Source: Thermoproteota archaeon (GTDB lineage: Archaea; Korarchaeota; Korarchaeia; Korarchaeales; Korarchaeaceae). From it: DNA of 64,000 nucleotides. The stretch is from assembly GCA_026986575.1 (NCBI GenBank), contig JALSOH010000006.1, positions 352,001 through 416,000 of the forward strand, read 5' to 3'. Below, piece by piece: positions 47,919 through 64,000 of the stretch (position 1 is the stretch's first letter; each line of letters begins with the position of its first letter). The position numbers and the translations under genes are program-made. The notes beneath the pieces were generated by a model. The model was not told the origin of the DNA. It saw only the letters and a program-made list of their open reading frames with translations, and made no database searches.

Positions 47919-48503
47919 TCACTTGAACACACTATCTATTAACCTTCTAAGAGTTTTCCTGACTTTAGGTGGATTGTCCACAGAGATGGGCAACCTCTCA
48001 ATGCTCTTCCTCAGAACCTCCTTCAGGTCAAGATCTAGCTCACTGCTCATCGCTTTCACATACTCCCAGTCGATCCTATCCCCGACCTCCGTGAGTATAA
48101 CCGCTATATCAGCGAGGTCCCTCTCCCTGCGAGCTAGTGCCTTGAGTAAGAGCGCATCCTCGGGCGATATGACCCATACCCTCCTCCCGTCAATTTCCGC
48201 CTCTACGGCCCTCTCTAAGAGCTGCCTCACGCTCAATCCAGAGACTCTCTCCACATAAACGTCTATATCCCCTTTCATCCTATGCTTAAATTCGAGCTTT
48301 CCGAGGCGAGGGTTCTCCAACAAAACATAGCCCATACCAGATAATCCCTGCTTAAGCTTCCAGAGATCTGCCGGATCTACAGCGACATCGACATCATGGG
48401 TGGTCCTGAAAGGCCTGATGGCCGATACAGCCAGAGCTCCAAGTAGCGCGTACCTGACCTTTCTCTCCTCCGCTACGGATAAGAAATCTTCAATAGAGGA
48501 CAT
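47919..48503 (-). CDS. Nucleotidyltransferase, AbiEii-like toxin
   Basis: LGALAV...RTTHDVD, LLKA..RERDLAD; overlaps the upstream HTH gene. Confidence 0.75.
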   Translation of the reverse strand: MSSIEDFLSVAEERKVRYALLGALAVSAIRPFRTTHDVDVAVDPADLWKLKQGLSGMGYVLLENPRLGKLEFKHRMKGDIDVYVERVSGLSVRQLLERAVEAEIDGRRVWVISPEDALLLKALARRERDLADIAVILTEVGDRIDWEYVKAMSSELDLDLKEVLRKSIERLPISVDNPPKVRKTLRRLIDSVFK

Positions 48504-49155
48504 CAGTCATCTCCTCCACAACTGTAGGGATCTTCCCACCGAGGGCTGCCAGATCCAGAACGCCTCTCCCCAACCAGGTGATGAGCTCCAACTTCAACCT
48601 CTCCTCCGTCACCACCGGCCAACCAGATATAACCTCGCTAGCTGGTAGCTCTCTCACTGGGATGAGGACGAGATCAGCCAGCCCGTGGGCCCTCCTTCCC
48701 AGAGAGATCCATCTCTCTAAGTCCCGCTCCCTCACATAGGCAAAGGCTGCAGACGGTGTCTGGAACCCTGTTCTTATGTAAGCAGCCGTTTCGTAGCATA
48801 GCACGTAGTCATCTCCCTCACTACTTTCCTTAAGGAGCTCCATTGATCTCTTCCAGCCTCCGGCCTGGAGACGCACGGCCCTATCAAACAGCTTCTCTAT
48901 GTGGAAAACTCCCAGTACATCCTCAGCCTCCATTTTACCAATGATCTTGGCCCTATCAGTCGGGATAAAGACATTCTCCTCTCTTCTGAGCCATCCCCTA
49001 TCTTCAAGTTCTCTCATCTTTCTATAGACAGTAGTCTTTGGTAAAGATGCCTCAATAGCAGCTCTAGAGGGAGTTAGGGGTCCCCTGAGGGCGAGCCATA
49101 TGAGGAAGAGGGAGGACTCATCTATTCCCATATATGGTAAGAGACCCACTTTCAT
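48490..49155 (-). CDS. HTH protein with AbiEi-like C-terminal domain (putative antitoxin)
   Basis: N-terminal wHTH (PKTTVYRKMRELEDRGWL); YETAAY...P...AYV; PVVT.ERL.LEL...GRG. Confidence 0.65.
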   Translation of the reverse strand: MKVGLLPYMGIDESSLFLIWLALRGPLTPSRAAIEASLPKTTVYRKMRELEDRGWLRREENVFIPTDRAKIIGKMEAEDVLGVFHIEKLFDRAVRLQAGGWKRSMELLKESSEGDDYVLCYETAAYIRTGFQTPSAAFAYVRERDLERWISLGRRAHGLADLVLIPVRELPASEVISGWPVVTEERLKLELITWLGRGVLDLAALGGKIPTVVEEMTDVLY

Positions 49156-49442: not shown

Positions 49443-50759
49443 ATGAACTTGCGTTCCCTGTTAGAGCGCTTGACTAATGAGGAAGACGCATCTATACGTG
49501 TGGCCATTAATGAGTCCTCCGATCCTCCCGTGATAAGGAGAAGCTATTCCCAAATTTTCTATGGAAAGGATCTCCCACCTCAACCGCCTGTGGAGGTAAT
49601 TAAAGCGGGGGACCTGCGGGATGCCGACCTGTTCGTTGCGGTCGACTTGGTAATCTCCCTGACGGGAGCTTCCTCCCCCGATGAGGTCAAATCTGGAGCT
49701 GAATCTCTCCTTAGAGAACTAGCTAGGAAGGTAAGGTTGAGGGCGGAGGACTCGAAGAAGAGCAATGTGGCGCTGGCCCTGCCAGAGAGGCGCCACTTGG
49801 AGGAGGTTAAGGGAAAGTGGACCAAGTGGGTGTGGAAGCGAACTGCCTACGACGGGACCCCAGCTCCAGACTTCAATGGCTGGGTCAGGGACTTGATCTC
49901 TTTGGCAGATGCAATAAGGGGGGAGGGAGTGAGGGTCGTCTTCATGGCTGGCGAGTCCGGCAAGGTTCTGGAGGAGATGGGATACGAGGTCGTCAGTGTG
50001 AGCATCGAGGAGACGCTGCCTAAGCTGGGCTACCCTAGGGATCCCAGCGTAGCGTGGTCCGAGCAGCCGATCCTCATGAACATGGCGCTGGACATAAGGG
50101 GGGGCGAAGAAGAGGTCGCTAGATCCTTCTTTCAGAAGAATGGCTTGACTCCGGTGTTCAGGCCTAGGTGGTGGCGTAATGGTGAGATACTCGTCAGAGC
50201 CAAGGCCGAGGGAGGGAACTTCATACTGGTCGAGGGGGAGGGAGGGAAACGAGCCTTGTTCACCGGAATTGGAGTTAGGGGGAGTAACGTGGCCGCTCCC
50301 AAATTACTCCAAGAGTTCCTCATCTCGCAGGGCCTGAATATCGAGGTTTACGGGGTTCCCCTACCCGGCTACATACGGGATTGGCGAACAGGGGCCGTCC
50401 ATCTCGACGTTGTGATGATGCACGCAGGTCCCGTGACTTTCGTGAGCCCGGGCAGGATGGGGTTCTACTCACTTGTTAAGTACGGCGAGTCCCTCGAGAT
50501 AGTAGAGTTGGGTCAAGTGTTCCGTGACTTGGGCATAACAGTGGACGAGATACCTGCTGAGGGCAGCGAGATCACCATGGTGAACGGTCTCAACTTGGGG
50601 AACGGGAAGATAGTGGTGGATTCCTTCAACAGGGACGCGAACAGGTACTTGGAGAGGGAGTGGGGGCTAGACCTCATTGAGGTGAGCATACCCCAGATAG
50701 AGGCCGGCGGCGGAGGTGCGAGGTGCGCTACTAGGGAGTTCTACGTATCACGCGAGTGA
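49443..50759 (+). CDS. Arginine deiminase / amidinotransferase (pentein) family enzyme
   Basis: YPRDP, AEGGN, HLD, NGLNLG, GGGARC catalytic Asp/His/Cys pattern. Confidence 0.85.
   Translation: MNLRSLLERLTNEEDASIRVAINESSDPPVIRRSYSQIFYGKDLPPQPPVEVIKAGDLRDADLFVAVDLVISLTGASSPDEVKSGAESLLRELARKVRLRAEDSKKSNVALALPERRHLEEVKGKWTKWVWKRTAYDGTPAPDFNGWVRDLISLADAIRGEGVRVVFMAGESGKVLEEMGYEVVSVSIEETLPKLGYPRDPSVAWSEQPILMNMALDIRGGEEEVARSFFQKNGLTPVFRPRWWRNGEILVRAKAEGGNFILVEGEGGKRALFTGIGVRGSNVAAPKLLQEFLISQGLNIEVYGVPLPGYIRDWRTGAVHLDVVMMHAGPVTFVSPGRMGFYSLVKYGESLEIVELGQVFRDLGITVDEIPAEGSEITMVNGLNLGNGKIVVDSFNRDANRYLEREWGLDLIEVSIPQIEAGGGGARCATREFYVSRE
50709..50744 (+). repeat. Left direct repeat (attL-like), inside the 3' end of the deiminase gene
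   Basis: GGCGGAGGTGCGAGGTGCGCTACTAGGGAGTTCTAC, identical to 54514-54549. Confidence 0.95.
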
Positions 50760-50886
50760 GCTATCGTAAAACCCCTCAAGGAACTCATTGCTTTTCTAGA
50801 TGGGAAGAATCGGGCTACTTTACCGCTGATTAGATATACTCAATAGTTCAGCCGTTATTCCGACCCATACCGTAGGAAAAGGGGAA

Positions 50887-52257
50887 TTAGAGAGGAACGT
50901 CGCACAGGTATCTCAACATAAACAGAGAGAGCAGCAAGATGCAAGTATCTATCAGCAGGAAGGCAGAGTACAGCGCACCTACATCCACCACGAACCCGTT
51001 CAGTGATTCCAAGAAGACCATGATGAACACGGACTCGGCCACTACCATGATGGGGGTGAGCTTTAACCACCCAATGGACTGGAAGGTCCACATGGATTCT
51101 CTCTTCGGTAGCAGCCTGCATATCAGGAGATTATACAGGGAGGAGAAGGATATCACGGTAAAGATGAATACTGTGAGGTAGTAGACCAAGTTCCCTCCTG
51201 AGATCAGTGAAAATACGACGATAGGGATGTTTATCGCGAGACATATGATCACGTAAAGGGCGTACTTCGACAGGGAGACCTGTAACTTGGTTAAAGGCAG
51301 GATATAGAGGAGGGAAGAGCCAGAGCCCTCCAAGGAGTACAACCAGATTGTGAAGAGAGGGAGTATCACACCCAGCTCCAAGAGGGAAGCCAAGGTCAGG
51401 TTGAGCAACGCCGCGTTTGAACTTACTTCAGAAGTGTAGATCGTGATGATAGAGTGTGGAAATACGGAAAATAGTATTAAAGCCAGTATCCAAGGTCTCC
51501 TCCTGATCAAGATCAACTCCTTCTTTAGGAGAGTCATGTGAGGCAATTCTGCGTACTCATTCCCGGCAGGAGCGACATTAGGAAACTCATGCAATCTCCC
51601 TATTACTCTACCGAAGGCCATTGCAGTTAAGTAGAAATATCCTATCAGAAGTATACTTCTCTCTAAGATAGACGAGCTAAAGAGAATCGTAAGAAGAGGA
51701 CCTAAATACGTAAAAAGAATAATAGAACCTACCCAACTTAAGGTGATTAACCACGGAACTCTCCTAAATGAAATTTCCACGCAGGCCATTCCCAGTATAG
51801 TACCTAATACAGCTAGAAAACTACTAAGCCATACTAGGATGAAGATAGCATTAAACCGGAAGTCGAGGAGAGTATAGTAGGGGGGGATTAAGAGCGGGGA
51901 GAGGGCAAGACCACCCCAAAGTAAATGCGCAATAATTACTGCTGCAATGACAGTTCTAGGCCTAATAGGCAACATCAGTATTGGCATCAGAGACTTAGTG
52001 TCCTTGATAGATCTGTAATTGATAATAGACAGTGTAAAGAACGAAAATATATAAACCAGTTGACTAACTTTAATGTAAGATTGAATACTATCTCCATCTC
52101 TAACCAATATTATGAGGAAGAAGGACATTATGATAGAGGCTATAAATAGCAAAATATTAGACAATAGAATCCTAACTAAACTAATAGAATTACCACTTCT
52201 ATAGCTTCCTTCGCGGATTATTATCAAAGCTATCCGGAGAGGCAGAGGAATTCTCAA
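50887..52257 (-). CDS. ABC-2-type exporter permease (multi-TM)
   Basis: About 12 TM helices; LLKKEL..IRRRP and EG...LLYILPLT motifs; aligns by eye with the permease at 62849. Confidence 0.75.
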   Translation of the reverse strand: MRIPLPLRIALIIIREGSYRSGNSISLVRILLSNILLFIASIIMSFFLIILVRDGDSIQSYIKVSQLVYIFSFFTLSIINYRSIKDTKSLMPILMLPIRPRTVIAAVIIAHLLWGGLALSPLLIPPYYTLLDFRFNAIFILVWLSSFLAVLGTILGMACVEISFRRVPWLITLSWVGSIILFTYLGPLLTILFSSSILERSILLIGYFYLTAMAFGRVIGRLHEFPNVAPAGNEYAELPHMTLLKKELILIRRRPWILALILFSVFPHSIITIYTSEVSSNAALLNLTLASLLELGVILPLFTIWLYSLEGSGSSLLYILPLTKLQVSLSKYALYVIICLAINIPIVVFSLISGGNLVYYLTVFIFTVISFSSLYNLLICRLLPKRESMWTFQSIGWLKLTPIMVVAESVFIMVFLESLNGFVVDVGALYSAFLLIDTCILLLSLFMLRYLCDVPL

Positions 52258-52359
52258 GGTTCCATACCCTAAAGATTTACTCGTCTACTTAAAAATTAAT
52301 GGACATTAGTATGACTTGCATTCATCATATCATGGCTGAATAATTTATTAGTTAAAAAG

Positions 52360-52986
52360 TTAATCCAATGTGAAAATAACAACGTTATATATATGGATAT
52401 ATAGCAAAATAGCTAAGGAAAAGATAGCTGAAGATGCACACCTTATATCGAATTTTCCGGATAATTTATATAAGGAACATAGCCAGAAAAAGAAAATTAT
52501 CAAGTCTATTGCTATAAACAGATAAGGGCTAATGATAAGATCAAATTCGGACCTCAATAATATAAAAAAAGAAGGTATTACAAATTCAATTAGTCTAAGT
52601 AGAAAGACCGAACTCTCTCCTATCTGAAGAAATATCAAATAAAATCCGAAGCTTAGGAGCGTGTCTCTTAATTTTATTGTATGTTCCTTACAGAAAGTCG
52701 TAATGGTTAAGTAAAATATCTCAGTAACAAGGAATAGGACGAATAAACTAGCTAACCCATGTGCAAGAAAACCTGCCGCGATCACTAAGAATAATCCTCC
52801 AAGAAAATTCTGAAGAAGCACCGTAAATTCTCTGAGGAGATACATTGTCAAACTTGTAGTATACAATAGAGATGAGATCAGTATAGTTGATAGTAGAATG
52901 ATAACCTTTCGATGAGGGCTAACATTATCTAGAAAAAGACAGAAACCCCAAACTCTATTCAATATCCTGATTACAAGGAATTTCAC
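52360..52986 (-). CDS. Yip1-like membrane protein
   Basis: 208 aa, 5-6 hydrophobic helices; divergent from the peptide gene; family call rests on topology and context. Confidence 0.5.
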   Translation of the reverse strand: MKFLVIRILNRVWGFCLFLDNVSPHRKVIILLSTILISSLLYTTSLTMYLLREFTVLLQNFLGGLFLVIAAGFLAHGLASLFVLFLVTEIFYLTITTFCKEHTIKLRDTLLSFGFYLIFLQIGESSVFLLRLIEFVIPSFFILLRSEFDLIISPYLFIAIDLIIFFFWLCSLYKLSGKFDIRCASSAIFSLAILLYIHIYNVVIFTLD

Positions 52987-53049
52987 AAGAATGCCTCCTT
53001 TAGACTCATAATACCATGTTCTCTGACCGGTGCGTTGATCTTAAGTAAA

Positions 53050-53060
53050 TTTTTATATAT
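53050..53060. promoter_or_regulatory. TATA box of the divergent island promoter
   Basis: TTTTTATATAT about 30 nt upstream of the peptide GTG, between divergent genes. Confidence 0.55.
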
Positions 53061-53090
53061 TTGCGCCCTAATTATAAATGTGGTGGTTCC

Positions 53091-53345
53091 GTGGATCAGA
53101 GGAAAATAGTTTCAGTAATCCTGATGTTGCAAATCATATTTCTTGCGGCGCCCTTTTGGATGAGCGGAAAAGCAGGAATGATATGGGGAGCTATAGCATA
53201 TCACGTCCATACACATTATCATAACCATCTAGCTTCGCACGTAGCTTTACATATGGCTATCACTCATATCATGATATACACCTTAGCAGGGTCTGGGTTT
53301 GGACCCATCGGAGCGTTAGCTGGCTTTCTAATAGGAATAGCATAA
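53091..53345 (+). CDS. Putative bacteriocin/archaeocin precursor peptide (84 aa, His-rich)
   Basis: GGTGG RBS plus GTG; leader-like MDQRK+hydrophobic stretch; core with 8 His and a Gly-rich hydrophobic end GSGFGPIGALAGFLIGIA; upstream of SpoIIM. Confidence 0.7.
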   Translation: MDQRKIVSVILMLQIIFLAAPFWMSGKAGMIWGAIAYHVHTHYHNHLASHVALHMAITHIMIYTLAGSGFGPIGALAGFLIGIA

Positions 53346-53385
53346 ACCTAATTCTCTAACATTTTTATATCTTAGGTGAGGAGAC

Positions 53386-53796
53386 ATGTTATCCAAAAAG
53401 CGAAATCTTGTTGGTATTATGATATTTTTCATACTCATGACAATTTTCTTCGGAGTCTTTTCATATCAGTTGTGGATCTCTGAACCGGAGGATTTCCTCT
53501 TATATTTCGCTGTAGGATTTACCTCTAGCATTCTTATATTCCTACTTTTCTCTGGAGATGTTGATCCTTTGGATATGTCTTGGAGGGGAATAGATGTAAA
53601 AGATAGGAGAACTCTCCTAAAGTATCTAATCTTAATAGGCCTAGTAGGTGCACTGCTAGGATCAGCACTCCCTCATGCTCTTGGATATCAGAATGAATTT
53701 CTGTATATAGCAGCTTGGTATACAGTAGGGCTGGGTGTAGCAGTTGCTTCGCTCTTGATATTGCCCATACTCAGCTATTTTCATAACAGAAAATAA
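53386..53796 (+). CDS. Small 4-TM membrane protein, candidate immunity protein
   Basis: GGTGAGGAG RBS; four hydrophobic helices, basic termini; directly after the peptide gene. Confidence 0.6.
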   Translation: MLSKKRNLVGIMIFFILMTIFFGVFSYQLWISEPEDFLLYFAVGFTSSILIFLLFSGDVDPLDMSWRGIDVKDRRTLLKYLILIGLVGALLGSALPHALGYQNEFLYIAAWYTVGLGVAVASLLILPILSYFHNRK

Positions 53797-53811
53797 AGTA
53801 GAAACACGGAG

Positions 53812-54435
53812 GTGGATGTTATAAATATCGGTGAAAAAGGTATTTGGATAGCAGCTCTTCTCCTGTATTTTGTGGGGTTCGGCTTGTCTCTTCTGGACAA
53901 CTCCACCCTGCAACATCCTACTACTCTCCGATGGAAATACATTGACTTAAAACTAAATCGCGAATATTATTTTATAATTACCTATGATTTTTTTAAAATT
54001 TGTCGAATGGATGACTACTCAAAAATTAAACTCATTTTGATAAACAATTTAGAGAGTGTTGTATTGACTGTGATGGGAGGAGTTGCTCTCTCGATACCGA
54101 CCGTCGTATCTACACTGTACAATGGATATCTTTTTGGCTCTTTTATCGGAGGTGCGCTTGCGAGTGGGCTAAGTTTAATCGAAATAATAAAACTAACTGT
54201 GTTTCATGGATTTATAGAGATAGCAGGATTCTTGATGGCGACTGTTGCAGGAATGCGTATCTCACTTTTATTAAAAGATTTATTGATATCATTACCTGAA
54301 GATCAAGATTTCTCTAAGAAGATGCGATTAAAAATTATAAGTATTATGAAACTCTTCCTATACTCTCTAATTTTTATTACTATAGCGGGATTGATAGAGG
54401 TGTACATCTCAATAGACCTAATCCTCTGCGGATAA
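53812..54435 (+). CDS. SpoIIM/DUF95-family membrane protein
   Basis: NN....L, NG...G, HGFIE, G..I and IAGLIEVYIS signature motifs. Confidence 0.85.
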   Translation: MDVINIGEKGIWIAALLLYFVGFGLSLLDNSTLQHPTTLRWKYIDLKLNREYYFIITYDFFKICRMDDYSKIKLILINNLESVVLTVMGGVALSIPTVVSTLYNGYLFGSFIGGALASGLSLIEIIKLTVFHGFIEIAGFLMATVAGMRISLLLKDLLISLPEDQDFSKKMRLKIISIMKLFLYSLIFITIAGLIEVYISIDLILCG

Positions 54436-54513
54436 CTCACCTATATTAATTTTAGGCAAATAATCAGGAGTTTCACTTACCTGCTATTTTGAAACAGCCA
54501 AATTGAGGCTGGA

Positions 54514-54549
54514 GGCGGAGGTGCGAGGTGCGCTACTAGGGAGTTCTAC
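54514..54549 (+). repeat. Right direct repeat (attR-like); orphan copy of the deiminase 3' end
   Basis: Identical to 50709-50744; 54499-54555 reads QIEAGGGGARCATREFYK-stop. Confidence 0.95.
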
Positions 54550-54601
54550 AAATGAAAATTCGTTAAACTTATATTATCACGGGGTTATATCGGCCGGTGG
54601 G

Positions 54602-55159
54602 ATGTTGGTCAGGCCCATGACCTTGTACGCCTTGGCCTCTTCCTTCGGAGGAGAGTCCATGGCCCACATGCGCTACATCCTCTTCGCCGAGAAGGCGGAG
54701 AGGGAAGGCTTTCCCAACGTCGCCAGATTGTTCAGGGCGATCGCCTATGCTGAGAGGGTCCACGCGAACAACCACTTCAACGCACTCTCCGAACTCAAGG
54801 GAGACCTGAAGGTGGTGGCCGGAGCGACCTTCGGCCCCGGGAGCACCTCCAAGAACTTGGAGCTTGCAATTATGGGGGAGGAATACGAGGTAGAGGAAAT
54901 GTATCCTGCATACATATCGGTGGCCGAGCTTCAGGGGGAGAGGAGAGCTGCTACAAGCTTCAAATGGGCCTTGGAGGCTGAGAAAATACATGCTGAGCTG
55001 TTCAGAGAGGCGAAGGATTATGTGGACAGGGGAGAGGATTACCCATTGGATGGGAAGATCTGGATATGTCCCGTATGCGGGCATACTCACGTGGGCCCGG
55101 AACCTCCGGAGAGATGCCCGGTCTGCGGGGCGCCTAGGGATAGGTACGAGGGTTTCTGA
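54602..55159 (+). CDS. rbr: Rubrerythrin
   Basis: GESMA..RY..FA, AERVHA, GEEYE...MYP, AEKIH, CPVCG...CPVCG rubredoxin domain; ATG at 54602. Confidence 0.93.
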   Translation: MLVRPMTLYALASSFGGESMAHMRYILFAEKAEREGFPNVARLFRAIAYAERVHANNHFNALSELKGDLKVVAGATFGPGSTSKNLELAIMGEEYEVEEMYPAYISVAELQGERRAATSFKWALEAEKIHAELFREAKDYVDRGEDYPLDGKIWICPVCGHTHVGPEPPERCPVCGAPRDRYEGF

Positions 55160-62848: not shown

Positions 62849-64000
62849 ATGCATTGGAGGAGGGCTGCAGAGATCATAGCCATGGAAGCAGCCTACAGAT
62901 CAGCCAGAAAGCATGGAAAGGGTAGGGAGTTCATCAGGATAACAGGGAGGAGCGCCCTGAGGTATAACATCCTCCTAGCCGTCATGTTCTCCCTACTATC
63001 TTCTTCCCTCGGACTGGGAGCACTCCTCGGGAGGGAGGTATCATATCTCCTCCTCTCCATGCTCTTTATGATGGATGTGGTCATGGGAATCCTCACAATG
63101 GCCCTGAACCTTCAGATGCTCATCTCTGACAGGCTGCTGGATCCCCTCAAGCAGCTCCCCATAGATGAAGGGGGAGTCAGGAGCATCTTGCTCTGGATAG
63201 GCTTATACTGGGGAGGCGCCGCTCTTCCCTTTCTCCTCATGCCGGCTGGTCTGATATCCTCCCTCATATTGAGGGACCTGTCCACACTGCTAGCAAGCGT
63301 GCTGATGTCATTCTCGTCGCTCAACCTTTCCCTTGGACTGGGGTACCTAGCCGGGTCGTACAGCGCTAACTACACGAAGAGCGGGAAGGGGCTATTGAGA
63401 TCGACCCTCGCTTGGCTGTCTCTATTGAGTTTAGGATTCGCTATAGGTCCCGTCGCGTCATGGTTCCTGAGCTCCATCGAGACAGGAGCCCGCATACCTG
63501 AATGGATGGTCCCCTTGAGCTTCTGCTACCTCACCTCACCACGCGCCCTCATCTCATCCTCGGCGCTCCTCTTCCTGTCAGTGGCTATCATGACCCTCGG
63601 CTCCAAGAGGTTCTGGAGGAAGATATCGGTCGGGGAGGTCTCGGCACCCCCGCGTCCCCCGAAGTGGAGCCTGACCAGTGGACTGTGGGCGGCTCTGCTC
63701 AGGGAGATGAGAATAGTCCTCAGGACCCCGAGAGTCCTAGCCTCCCTGATAATATATTCCTTGGTCTTCCCGGTATCCCTCATATCACCCCAGAAGACCT
63801 TCCTAGGCGGCTTCCTAGGTCCGAACTATACATCTCTGTTTATGCTCTCGGTTGGGGGGCTTGGGGGATTCTCAGTGGTCTACCTCTATATATCCGAGTC
63901 CTCTGGGGCCAAGGCCCTGTACCTGCTTCCCCTGACCAGATCTAGAGTGGCAGCCATCAAGACACTCGCCTTCCTCCTCCTCAACCTGCCGCTCCTCTTA
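62849..64000 (+). CDS. ABC-2-type exporter permease, runs off the window end (absent from the ORF track)
   Basis: GGAGG RBS plus ATG; open frame MHWRRAAEIIAMEAAYRS...ALYLLPLTRSRVAAIK with many TM helices. Confidence 0.8.
   Translation, partial: MHWRRAAEIIAMEAAYRSARKHGKGREFIRITGRSALRYNILLAVMFSLLSSSLGLGALLGREVSYLLLSMLFMMDVVMGILTMALNLQMLISDRLLDPLKQLPIDEGGVRSILLWIGLYWGGAALPFLLMPAGLISSLILRDLSTLLASVLMSFSSLNLSLGLGYLAGSYSANYTKSGKGLLRSTLAWLSLLSLGFAIGPVASWFLSSIETGARIPEWMVPLSFCYLTSPRALISSSALLFLSVAIMTLGSKRFWRKISVGEVSAPPRPPKWSLTSGLWAALLREMRIVLRTPRVLASLIIYSLVFPVSLISPQKTFLGGFLGPNYTSLFMLSVGGLGGFSVVYLYISESSGAKALYLLPLTRSRVAAIKTLAFLLLNLPLLL

Follow-up and report, generated by a model that had tools for sequence, protein, structure and literature searches.

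According to PMC5695211 and PMC8659200, the head-to-tail cyclised bacteriocins described are all bacterial and almost all from Bacillota. SpoIIM, the protein of domain family DUF95, is presented in PMC6131525 and PMC13289728 as the product of the class-defining gene of their clusters, which minimally encode a precursor, a DUF95 protein and a protein that binds ATP (PMC8534725); Yip1 genes are frequent in these clusters and M48 peptidases are found in a few of them (PMC8659200; both also PMC8534725). Removal of the leader and ring closure have been proposed as the task of DUF95 (PMC13463998), and the leader-cutting, ring-closing enzyme is described as still not established (PMC6131525, PMC13463998). 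The group ii circular bacteriocins are hydrophobic, low-charge peptides with long leaders (PMC6131525). In Archaea, DUF95/COG1300 (arCOG01996) is given as the fourth commonest known arCOG in "dark matter islands", beside integrases and viral genes, with an abundance of 17 (PMC4158269, Table 1). Here, a stretch of 64,000 nucleotides (nt) from a Thermoproteota archaeon of the Korarchaeaceae (GCA_026986575.1, contig JALSOH010000006.1, positions 352,001 to 416,000), referred to below as the window, was analysed, and a 3.8-kb insert within this archaeal chromosome (genome position C6:402693-406549), the island, was compared with these systems. No report of an archaeal circular bacteriocin or SpoIIM-peptide locus was found in the literature searched, which leaves room for an earlier computational prediction.

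The island is read as a bacteriocin-like, SpoIIM-centred small-peptide module carried by a cargo-only integrated element, with a probability of about one half. A sequence-only reading of the same DNA had gone further and proposed a circular-bacteriocin locus. That proposal is partly supported. The SpoIIM protein, the precursor-like peptide, the sister modules of the same genome and a match to a Bacillus cluster speak for it; against it, the island encodes no ATPase, the peptide fits no known precursor family, Yip1 membership lacks support from sequence and the model of the core is not saposin-like. The locus appears, from its gene content, to be built like a circular-bacteriocin cluster, in Archaea, but it is not classed as a member, because neither an ATP-binding protein nor a precursor of known family was found and the fold, weakly tested, does not agree.

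The five open reading frames (ORFs) of the sequence-only reading, with lengths of 456, 208, 94, 136 and 207 amino acids (aa), were recovered at the same coordinates and on the same strands, and their divergent layout around one control region agrees with predicted TATA-like boxes facing both ways. The features of the island, including predicted transmembrane (TM) segments, are as follows.

53812-54435, plus strand: short stand-alone SpoIIM/DUF95 protein, 207 aa (PF01944, E 1.1e-17, 64.9 bits, cut-off 26.9)
53091-53345, plus strand: precursor-like peptide, 84 aa, GTG start, leader of about 29 aa and 55-aa core
53178-53342, plus strand: predicted core peptide, 55 aa, beginning M-I-W-G, with no K/R/D/E and 8 His, linear average mass 5875.8 Da
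53386-53796, plus strand: 136-aa protein between peptide and SpoIIM, 4 TM-like segments by a crude hydropathy scan, isoelectric point (pI) 7.98
52987-53090: divergent intergenic control region, 75-104 nt, with back-to-back AT-rich TATA-like boxes predicted by reading the sequence
52360-52986, minus strand: 208-aa protein, 5-6 TM-like segments by hydropathy, possibly Yip1-like
50887-52257, minus strand: 456-aa polytopic protein, 12TM_1/DUF5687/ABC-2-permease-like (PF09847, E 0.0026, 17.4 bits, cut-off 33.2)

All five products are strongly hydrophobic membrane proteins, with a grand average of hydropathy (GRAVY) of 0.85-1.24. The plus-strand genes are separated by gaps of 40 and 15 nt and the minus-strand genes by 102 nt, and Shine-Dalgarno-like motifs can be read before the 208-aa gene (GGAGG) and before the GTG at 53091 (GGTGG). 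Pfam searches of the island proteins were reported down to E<=1, and NCBIfam, PHROG and PADLOC searches were also run; PADLOC gave no match for the island proteins and PHROG no significant match, the peptide alone giving two weak ones (E 0.0058 and 0.072).

The SpoIIM protein and the peptide upstream of it

The assignment of 53812-54435 to SpoIIM/DUF95, already made in the sequence-only reading, is beyond doubt by its profile match, and the SpoIIM gene is preceded, at a distance of 467 nt and in the same orientation, by the peptide ORF. The island SpoIIM was aligned with 10 archaeal short SpoIIMs and, in a second alignment, with the SpoIIM of a Bacillus bacteriocin cluster. It was 21-30% identical to the other archaeal short SpoIIMs of the genus and alignable with them; N79, G89, G105, G109, E136 (in an H-G-x-x-E motif) and E196 were common to the island protein and 8 archaeal short SpoIIMs, one further His was kept in 9 of the 11 sequences, and the Bacillus protein keeps the same six positions (N, G, G, G, E, E). 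The invariant membrane Asn, the two Glu and the conserved His look like a possible active or binding site. A word search with the island SpoIIM returned the protein itself only, a locus scan with a 2-sequence SpoIIM alignment returned one locus, that of a genus relative, and the prediction of a SpoIIM-peptide complex, run without controls, scored 0.00 and speaks neither for nor against binding.

When 72,556 plasmids were searched by tblastn with the island SpoIIM, one match was obtained, on the Bacillus thuringiensis replicon NZ_CP017573.1 (29.6% identity, E 4e-3). The genes there are ordered as HlyD, ABC (ATP-binding cassette) ATPase, permease, Yip1, 57-aa ORF, YIP1, precursor, SpoIIM, 583-aa membrane protein and ABC ATPase; the precursor is annotated "circular bacteriocin, circularin A/uberolysin family", and Pfam detects PF09221, PF01944 and, twice, Yip1. 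Both loci have a small ORF upstream of a stand-alone SpoIIM and extra polytopic proteins, the neighbours being of Yip1 and permease type in Bacillus and possibly Yip1-like and permease-like in the island, whereas the island is archaeal, has no ATPase, and encodes an uncharged, His-rich peptide outside the precursor families. The Bacillus cluster is carried on a plasmid and its archaeal counterpart on an integrated island.

The longest frame of the peptide comprises 94 aa from a TTG (53061-53345), and the true start is probably the GTG at 53091, giving 84 aa, since gene callers use that start and the sole homologue begins there. The peptide is hydrophobic (GRAVY 0.90), as the sequence-only reading had described it, and is laid out as a basic N-terminus followed by 18 hydrophobic residues, a brief link rich in Gly/Ala and the 55-aa core, which runs to the stop codon. 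The core has a pI of 7.1 and a GRAVY of 0.89; its histidines form an alternating H-x-H run and are then placed at a spacing of 4-5, and its C-terminus is Gly/Ala-rich and hydrophobic and ends the ORF without a C-terminal extension. Cleavage of the leader would fall before Met30, near Gly29/Met30, a site deduced from the boundary of conservation.

The sole homologue, P0002 (88 aa), is 73% identical, with the only indel lying within the leader or link. Between the two cores 42 of 55 positions are invariant, and all 8 His are kept in P0002 when the cores are aligned alone, 7 under profile alignment; the differences are mostly conservative. The family counts two known members among about 15 billion proteins, a word search returning the peptide's own cluster and P0002. 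When contigs from genomes, metagenomes and viruses (2.9 million of the viral ones) were scanned by pattern, 0 relatives of the peptide were found, and no sequence relative of the peptide or of SpoIIM was found among solved structures. A HMMER profile run against 1.84 billion representatives retrieved the peptide's own cluster and two long repetitive proteins (E 8.4e-5 and 2.6e-4), which were taken as composition noise.

Compared with the group ii bacteriocins (gassericin A, acidocin B and plantaricyclin), the peptide shares a long leader, a very hydrophobic, low-charge core and a near-neutral pI. It differs in having no sequence similarity to them by Pfam and NCBIfam and no saposin-like model, and in its richness in histidine, a feature that the relevant passages of PMC6131525 do not give for group ii.

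Recurrence of peptide-SpoIIM pairs in the genome and genus

PF01944 is present in 18 of 21 genomes of the genus and in all 13 of the good-quality ones. Long SpoIIM frames (474-501 aa) are near-universal, being found in most other genomes of the genus, and among the five PF01944 matches of the source genome one is of this long form (460-aa ORF within a 475-aa open frame). Short stand-alone SpoIIMs (172-224 aa) are patchy, with 12 loci in 4 of the 21 genomes; four more frames below 330 aa, three of them at contig ends, score like the long type and are outside the 12. The three other short SpoIIMs of the source genome each lie just downstream of an ORF of 81-100 aa whose leader is basic/hydrophobic and whose end is hydrophobic and free of charge, in DNA of lower guanine-plus-cytosine (GC) content. 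These sister modules are listed below.

C4:149471-152973: peptide, SpoIIM, 197-aa membrane protein, ABC ATPase (PF00005, E 1.6e-30) and two permeases
C4:163695-166034: 81-aa Gly/Ala-rich peptide, M48 peptidase (PF01435, E 3.1e-22, HExxH), SpoIIM and 199-aa membrane protein
C1:32242-33989: peptide, small 2-TM cationic protein, SpoIIM and 235-aa membrane protein

The first module starts about 215 nt past an archaeal large-subunit (LSU) rRNA gene, an arrangement also found in relative G020; in this rRNA-adjacent family, the best agreement between two copies of 55% identity begins at the residue predicted to open the core and is found again over the last ten residues, and the same conservation pattern is given for bacterial group 1 in PMC8659200. 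The second module is kept in G020, its peptide with few substitutions, and M48-SpoIIM pairs also occur in relative G003. Counterparts of the modules, orthologous or more diverged, are present in three genomes of the genus besides the source genome. In the peptide family of the third, a Y-Y-Y-[S/G]-R motif follows a leader ending in E-[S/E]-P-S, and the peptide gene is followed by those of 1-2 small 2-TM cationic, immunity-like proteins and of SpoIIM.

Across the genus, a leader-plus-core peptide was found upstream at 9 of the 12 short SpoIIM loci, the others being one ambiguous case (97-aa ORF), one cut by a contig end and one without such a peptide; with the island left out, a comparable upstream ORF stands at 8 of 11 further loci, accompanied by accessory genes (an ABC ATPase with permeases, an M48 peptidase, small 2-TM cationic proteins) of kinds known too from circular-bacteriocin clusters of bacteria (PMC8659200, PMC6131525). 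Variable small ORFs beside SpoIIM in related genomes, which the sequence-only reading had suggested looking for, are present. A genome-wide scan for ORFs of 60-125 aa with GRAVY >=0.6, an uncharged end of 12 residues and a position not inside a longer ORF, criteria set after the peptides were known, returned 15 ORFs. Three of these have a short SpoIIM downstream of them, in the same orientation and no more than 1.2 kb away, where about 0.02 would be expected (15 x 5400 / 3.82 million strand positions). Of the four peptides, the remaining one escaped the scan owing to its longer open frame.

The peptide families vary between modules and SpoIIM is conserved, and richness in His is not shared by the other peptides linked to SpoIIM in the genus. 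No significant homology was found among the membrane proteins beside SpoIIM across modules. A BLASTP match of the island's 136-aa protein to the small 2-TM protein of another module (E 0.005) was not counted, having come from a 20-sequence database with composition correction off. The island is like the genus modules in combining a peptide, 0-2 small TM proteins, a short SpoIIM and a polytopic protein of 190-250 aa, in low GC and in patchy distribution; it is different in that no sequence relationship links its peptide or its 136-aa and 208-aa proteins to theirs and in that its accessory genes are transcribed divergently. Clear attachment-site (att)-like repeats bound the island, repeats having been examined at the island locus only. 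The pairing of a peptide with SpoIIM recurs in the genus, and this backs the general idea independently of the island.

Insertion of the island and its remaining genes

The small island of the sequence-only reading is borne out by low GC, flanking repeats, empty sites in relatives and the lack of island DNA in all 40 relatives covered by a DNA search. In 200-nt steps, GC is 0.29-0.49 across 50800-54600, compared with 0.55-0.58 in the flanks and about 0.54 for the whole window. The island is flanked by 52-nt direct repeats that are 92% identical and share a 36-nt perfect core, and this core has only 2 occurrences in the 1.91-Mb genome, both at the island ends. The elements of the insertion site are as follows.

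49443-50759, plus strand: target gene, amidinotransferase/arginine-deiminase-like, 438 aa (PF02274, ADI, E 1.4e-9)
50693-50744: left direct repeat (attL-like), perfect core 50709-50744, with a host-lineage-like 5' arm, from repeat search and empty-site comparison
54498-54549: right direct repeat (attR-like), core 54514-54549, with an element-derived 5' arm that has 4 differences from the host lineage

The left repeat copy is the 3' end of the target gene (PF02274), and the 3' side of the right repeat carries the original end of this gene and then the rubrerythrin promoter. The last 52+15 nt of the target gene are partly element-derived and give it a new end (...EFYVSRE and stop codon), whereas in relatives it ends ...EFY[V/I/K] and stop codon, with the rubrerythrin promoter directly after. 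The element appears to have brought its own copy of the target's end, because the left arm is host-like, the right arm is divergent and the new gene end lies after the left core. By BLAST coordinates, the two flanks map to overlapping or adjacent positions in 5 relatives of the genus; in the 4 aligned empty-site loci the stop codon of the target gene leads directly to the rubrerythrin promoter, and a fifth aligned locus spans the left flank only. The island is thus a true insertion, and it looks like integration of site-specific type into the 3' end of the target gene.

Integrative elements can target the 3' ends of genes (tRNA or protein genes) and supply a replacement end. The island resembles them in having repeats that stem from the target's 3' end, one element-derived arm and an intact target gene, and it differs in having no integrase. 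None was found by Pfam among its five genes; the only two matches to the tyrosine-recombinase family PF00589 in the genome (C6:255703 and C4:266049) are both far from the island, and no tRNA genes lie within the window. In relative G019, a 50-nt match (90%) to the att-like repeat was observed at C88:72786-72835, about 56 kb from the rubrerythrin-side flank (C88:16927-17063) and in opposite order, which could be a rearrangement or another element at the same site.

In two sequencing runs, contig depth over the island was close to that of the flanks (18 vs 15.4/16.4; 21.8 vs 21.4/20.2), and no excision joint was found in the contigs of these runs. A 3829-nt contig considered as a free circular form was rejected, since it corresponds to 50715-54543, the inter-core stretch plus 30 nt on each side, and is a graph unitig. 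Run X3, of a different sample from the likely sources, contained 8 short contigs at least 99% identical to the island (51163-53974) at a depth of 2-5, with the flanks uncovered, too thin a coverage to place the island there. One run carrying the island is labelled as a hydrothermal vent metagenome, which indirectly suggests a thermophilic host; the host genome carries archaeal small-subunit (SSU) and LSU rRNA. In comparison with the dark matter islands of Makarova et al. 2014 (PMC4158269), the likeness is a DUF95 gene in a small, fast-evolving, horizontally moving island, and the difference is the linked peptide and full boundaries here, family abundance without function being what PMC4158269 gives in its relevant part.

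For the 456-aa protein, the ABC-type permease of the sequence-only reading, a sub-threshold PF09847 match, a precomputed PF09847 (PF09847.17) tag and Atlas data agree, and no ATPase partner is found in the island. Its Atlas features score 0.96 to DUF5687/12TM_1 clusters, and its model has TM scores of 0.60-0.69 to clusters of 12TM/ABC-2 permeases. Homologues (24-30% identity, about 500 aa) occur in 18 of 43 genomes of the phylum, and a paralogue of the same genome (C6:442805-444292) follows a Walker-A ABC ATPase; a word search with the protein returned itself only. This weak but convergent evidence suggests a 12-TM, ABC-2-permease-like protein. A distant paralogue of 492 aa (28% over part) lies at window positions 62849-64000 (C6:414849-416327), with no adjacent ATPase. 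Within the 456-aa gene, GC increases towards the 3' end, with about 0.29 over 52000-52257 (5' end) and 0.47-0.49 over 50800-51400 (3' end), a slope that could reflect mosaic origin or partial amelioration.

The 208-aa protein has Atlas language-model features of 0.94 (207/256) to "putative Yip1 domain" clusters of Bacillota and no Pfam (E<=1), NCBIfam, PHROG or PADLOC match. For the 136-aa protein, whose 4 TM-like segments in a crude hydropathy scan agree with the 4-TM protein of the sequence-only reading, the same four resources gave no match either; from its position between peptide and SpoIIM, it is a candidate immunity or accessory protein. Among 43 genomes of the phylum, each of these two proteins was detected in only one, the source genome itself.

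Proposed mechanism and other explanations

Under the bacteriocin-like reading, the peptide, the 4-TM protein and SpoIIM would form one operon, and the 5-6-TM protein and the 12-TM ABC-2-like permease a divergent one. The signal-like leader would insert the peptide into the membrane, the precursor would be cut near Gly29/Met30, and the 55-aa core would be matured by or with SpoIIM, cyclisation being possible and unproven. The 12-TM permease-like and 208-aa proteins would aid release, with an ATPase from elsewhere or none, and the 4-TM 136-aa protein, perhaps together with SpoIIM, would confer protection on the producing cell. What results would be a competition peptide that acts on membranes (archaeocin), and, as a speculation, the His residues may give it a positive charge when metal is bound or the pH is below about 6 and so gate its membrane activity. 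Cleavage, maturation, export, immunity and activity are predicted steps throughout.

Head-to-tail cyclisation of the peptide is a tentative suggestion, less probable than otherwise. Equally doubtful is the fullest form of the proposal, namely a new histidine-rich, charge-switchable circular archaeocin from a self-contained, ATPase-free, integrase-less mobile cassette, with Archaea making SpoIIM-dependent cyclised peptides. If it were true, SpoIIM, with its invariant membrane Asn and two Glu, would be a peptide-maturation device of ancient origin that Bacteria and Archaea have in common, export would be possible without a dedicated ABC ATPase, and one genome, from an archaeal phylum that is small and little studied, would hold four such peptide-SpoIIM modules, the island among them. 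The five-gene island, with its clean borders and no ATPase, and its three differently equipped sisters (one with M48, one with a full ABC system) would serve as a comparative set for the genes needed and for the role of SpoIIM, and a class of peptide weapon or signal would be added to a very short list of archaeal antimicrobials. The island also illustrates one way for such modules to move, namely by insertion of a cassette with cargo only at a housekeeping gene's 3' end. Should the peptide be an ordinary membrane protein, the value shrinks to that of a well-delimited archaeal "dark matter" island.

Several results weigh against the bacteriocin-like reading, beginning with gene content. An ATP-binding protein is stated to be present in all reported clusters (PMC8534725, PMC6131525), and none is encoded between the repeats, where no protein matches PF00005 and no room is left for another ORF. 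The Yip1-like protein of the sequence-only reading is not supported by sequence: comparison of the 208-aa protein with the two Bacillus Yip1 proteins gave BLASTP E values of 0.14 and 12 and an hhalign P of 0.4, Yip1 (PF04893) is unsupported by Pfam, and the Atlas features alone point there. Between the 456-aa protein and the 583-aa "B" protein of the Bacillus cluster, BLASTP and hhalign found no similarity, and the 136-aa protein (pI 7.98) exceeds in size, and falls short in positive charge of, the small cationic immunity proteins of PMC6131525. The runs carrying the island include no RNA runs.

Further points of this kind concern the peptide. The precursor, which the sequence-only reading had not recognised, matches no Pfam family (including PF09221 and PF12173) at E<=1 and no NCBIfam family (TIGR03651); it has no similarity to the peptides of the other modules (hhalign P 0.16-0.58). 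P0002 sits on a 964-nt contig with its gene context out of view, and 9 of the 12 short SpoIIM loci come from kin genomes, leaving about 6 independent lineages at most. An AlphaFold2 (AF2) model of the core (predicted local distance difference test, pLDDT, 88) has helices at 2-41 and 43-54 and is not saposin-like; it was built from a shallow 2-sequence alignment and is hence weak evidence on the fold. A Foldseek search of the core against the Protein Data Bank (PDB) gave 0 matches at E<=0.001, with no circular bacteriocin among 9 weak ones. The AF2 model of the full 84-aa peptide (pLDDT 64) was not usable. The spread of 8 His round a helix is atypical of described circular bacteriocins; on the modelled helix, His on all sides would be odd for a membrane-inserting helix, and the H-x-H run would rather suit a metal-binding strand.

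The best surviving alternative, although unlikely, is a SpoIIM-linked module with a linear product, a leader-cleaved signal, kin-recognition factor or linear bacteriocin, for which SpoIIM would serve in export or immunity only. The role of DUF95 in cyclisation is unproven in bacteria too, a DUF95 knockout of the leucocyclicin Q system being reported still to make circular peptide in cells (PMC6131525, PMC7132975); the core is modelled as an extended helix-turn-helix, whose ends would lie far apart by the layout of its secondary structure, and the island encodes no ATPase. Such a product is, however, at odds with the described cases, in all of which a small precursor beside a stand-alone SpoIIM is given as marking circular peptides (PMC13289728, PMC5695211), and with the end of the ORF right after an uncharged hydrophobic tail, as in circular precursors (PMC6131525).

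The histidines raise the question of whether a toxin is involved at all, since the peptide could be a resident His-rich membrane protein with a function in metal or pH response and the island a membrane homeostasis cassette useful at vents. The 8 His with their alternating H-x-H run, kept in P0002, the five membrane proteins, the vent metagenome run and the lack of any toxin or bacteriocin family match would fit this. Nevertheless, it is regarded as improbable: no metal-transport or metal-resistance family was matched in Pfam or NCBIfam, SpoIIM has no known link to metals, and the theme shared within the genus is the peptide-SpoIIM pair, not histidine.

Still more improbable is virus- or plasmid-derived cargo that serves the element itself, by superinfection exclusion or another membrane-level defence. 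The clean att-like structure, the very low GC, the orphan genes (the 208-aa and 136-aa proteins each in 1 of 43 genomes, and three proteins matching only themselves or one relative) and the frequency of DUF95 in archaeal dark matter islands reported in PMC4158269 are what such cargo would show, but there is no significant PHROG and no PADLOC match, no relative of the peptide in the 2.9 million viral contigs, and no replication, capsid or integrase gene in the island. Least credible is that the island is what is left of a larger mobile element, decaying and without function, a view to which the missing integrase and ATPase and the perhaps mosaic GC slope in the 456-aa gene could point, but which does not agree with five intact, tightly spaced ORFs with plausible starts, the mostly conservative changes in P0002, an island depth equal to that of the flanks in two runs and pieces of at least 99% identity in a third sample.

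Three further observations concern the surroundings. The 218-aa rubrerythrin ORF (54503-55159) starts at a TTG inside the right repeat; its true start is probably downstream, since residue 44 is the first of the Pfam domain and since, in relatives with the empty site, the promoter is found past the repeat. An overlapping pair on the minus strand (47919-49155), situated just upstream of the target gene, encodes a winged helix-turn-helix (wHTH) regulator (IclR/TrmB-like, 221 aa) and a DUF6036/NTP_transf_5 nucleotidyltransferase (194 aa), and looks like a pair of toxin-antitoxin type. Outside the window, at C6:440100-441500, spurious ORFs with a repeated translated motif were observed upstream of an ABC ATPase/permease pair, which suggests an array of repeats like clustered regularly interspaced short palindromic repeats (CRISPR).

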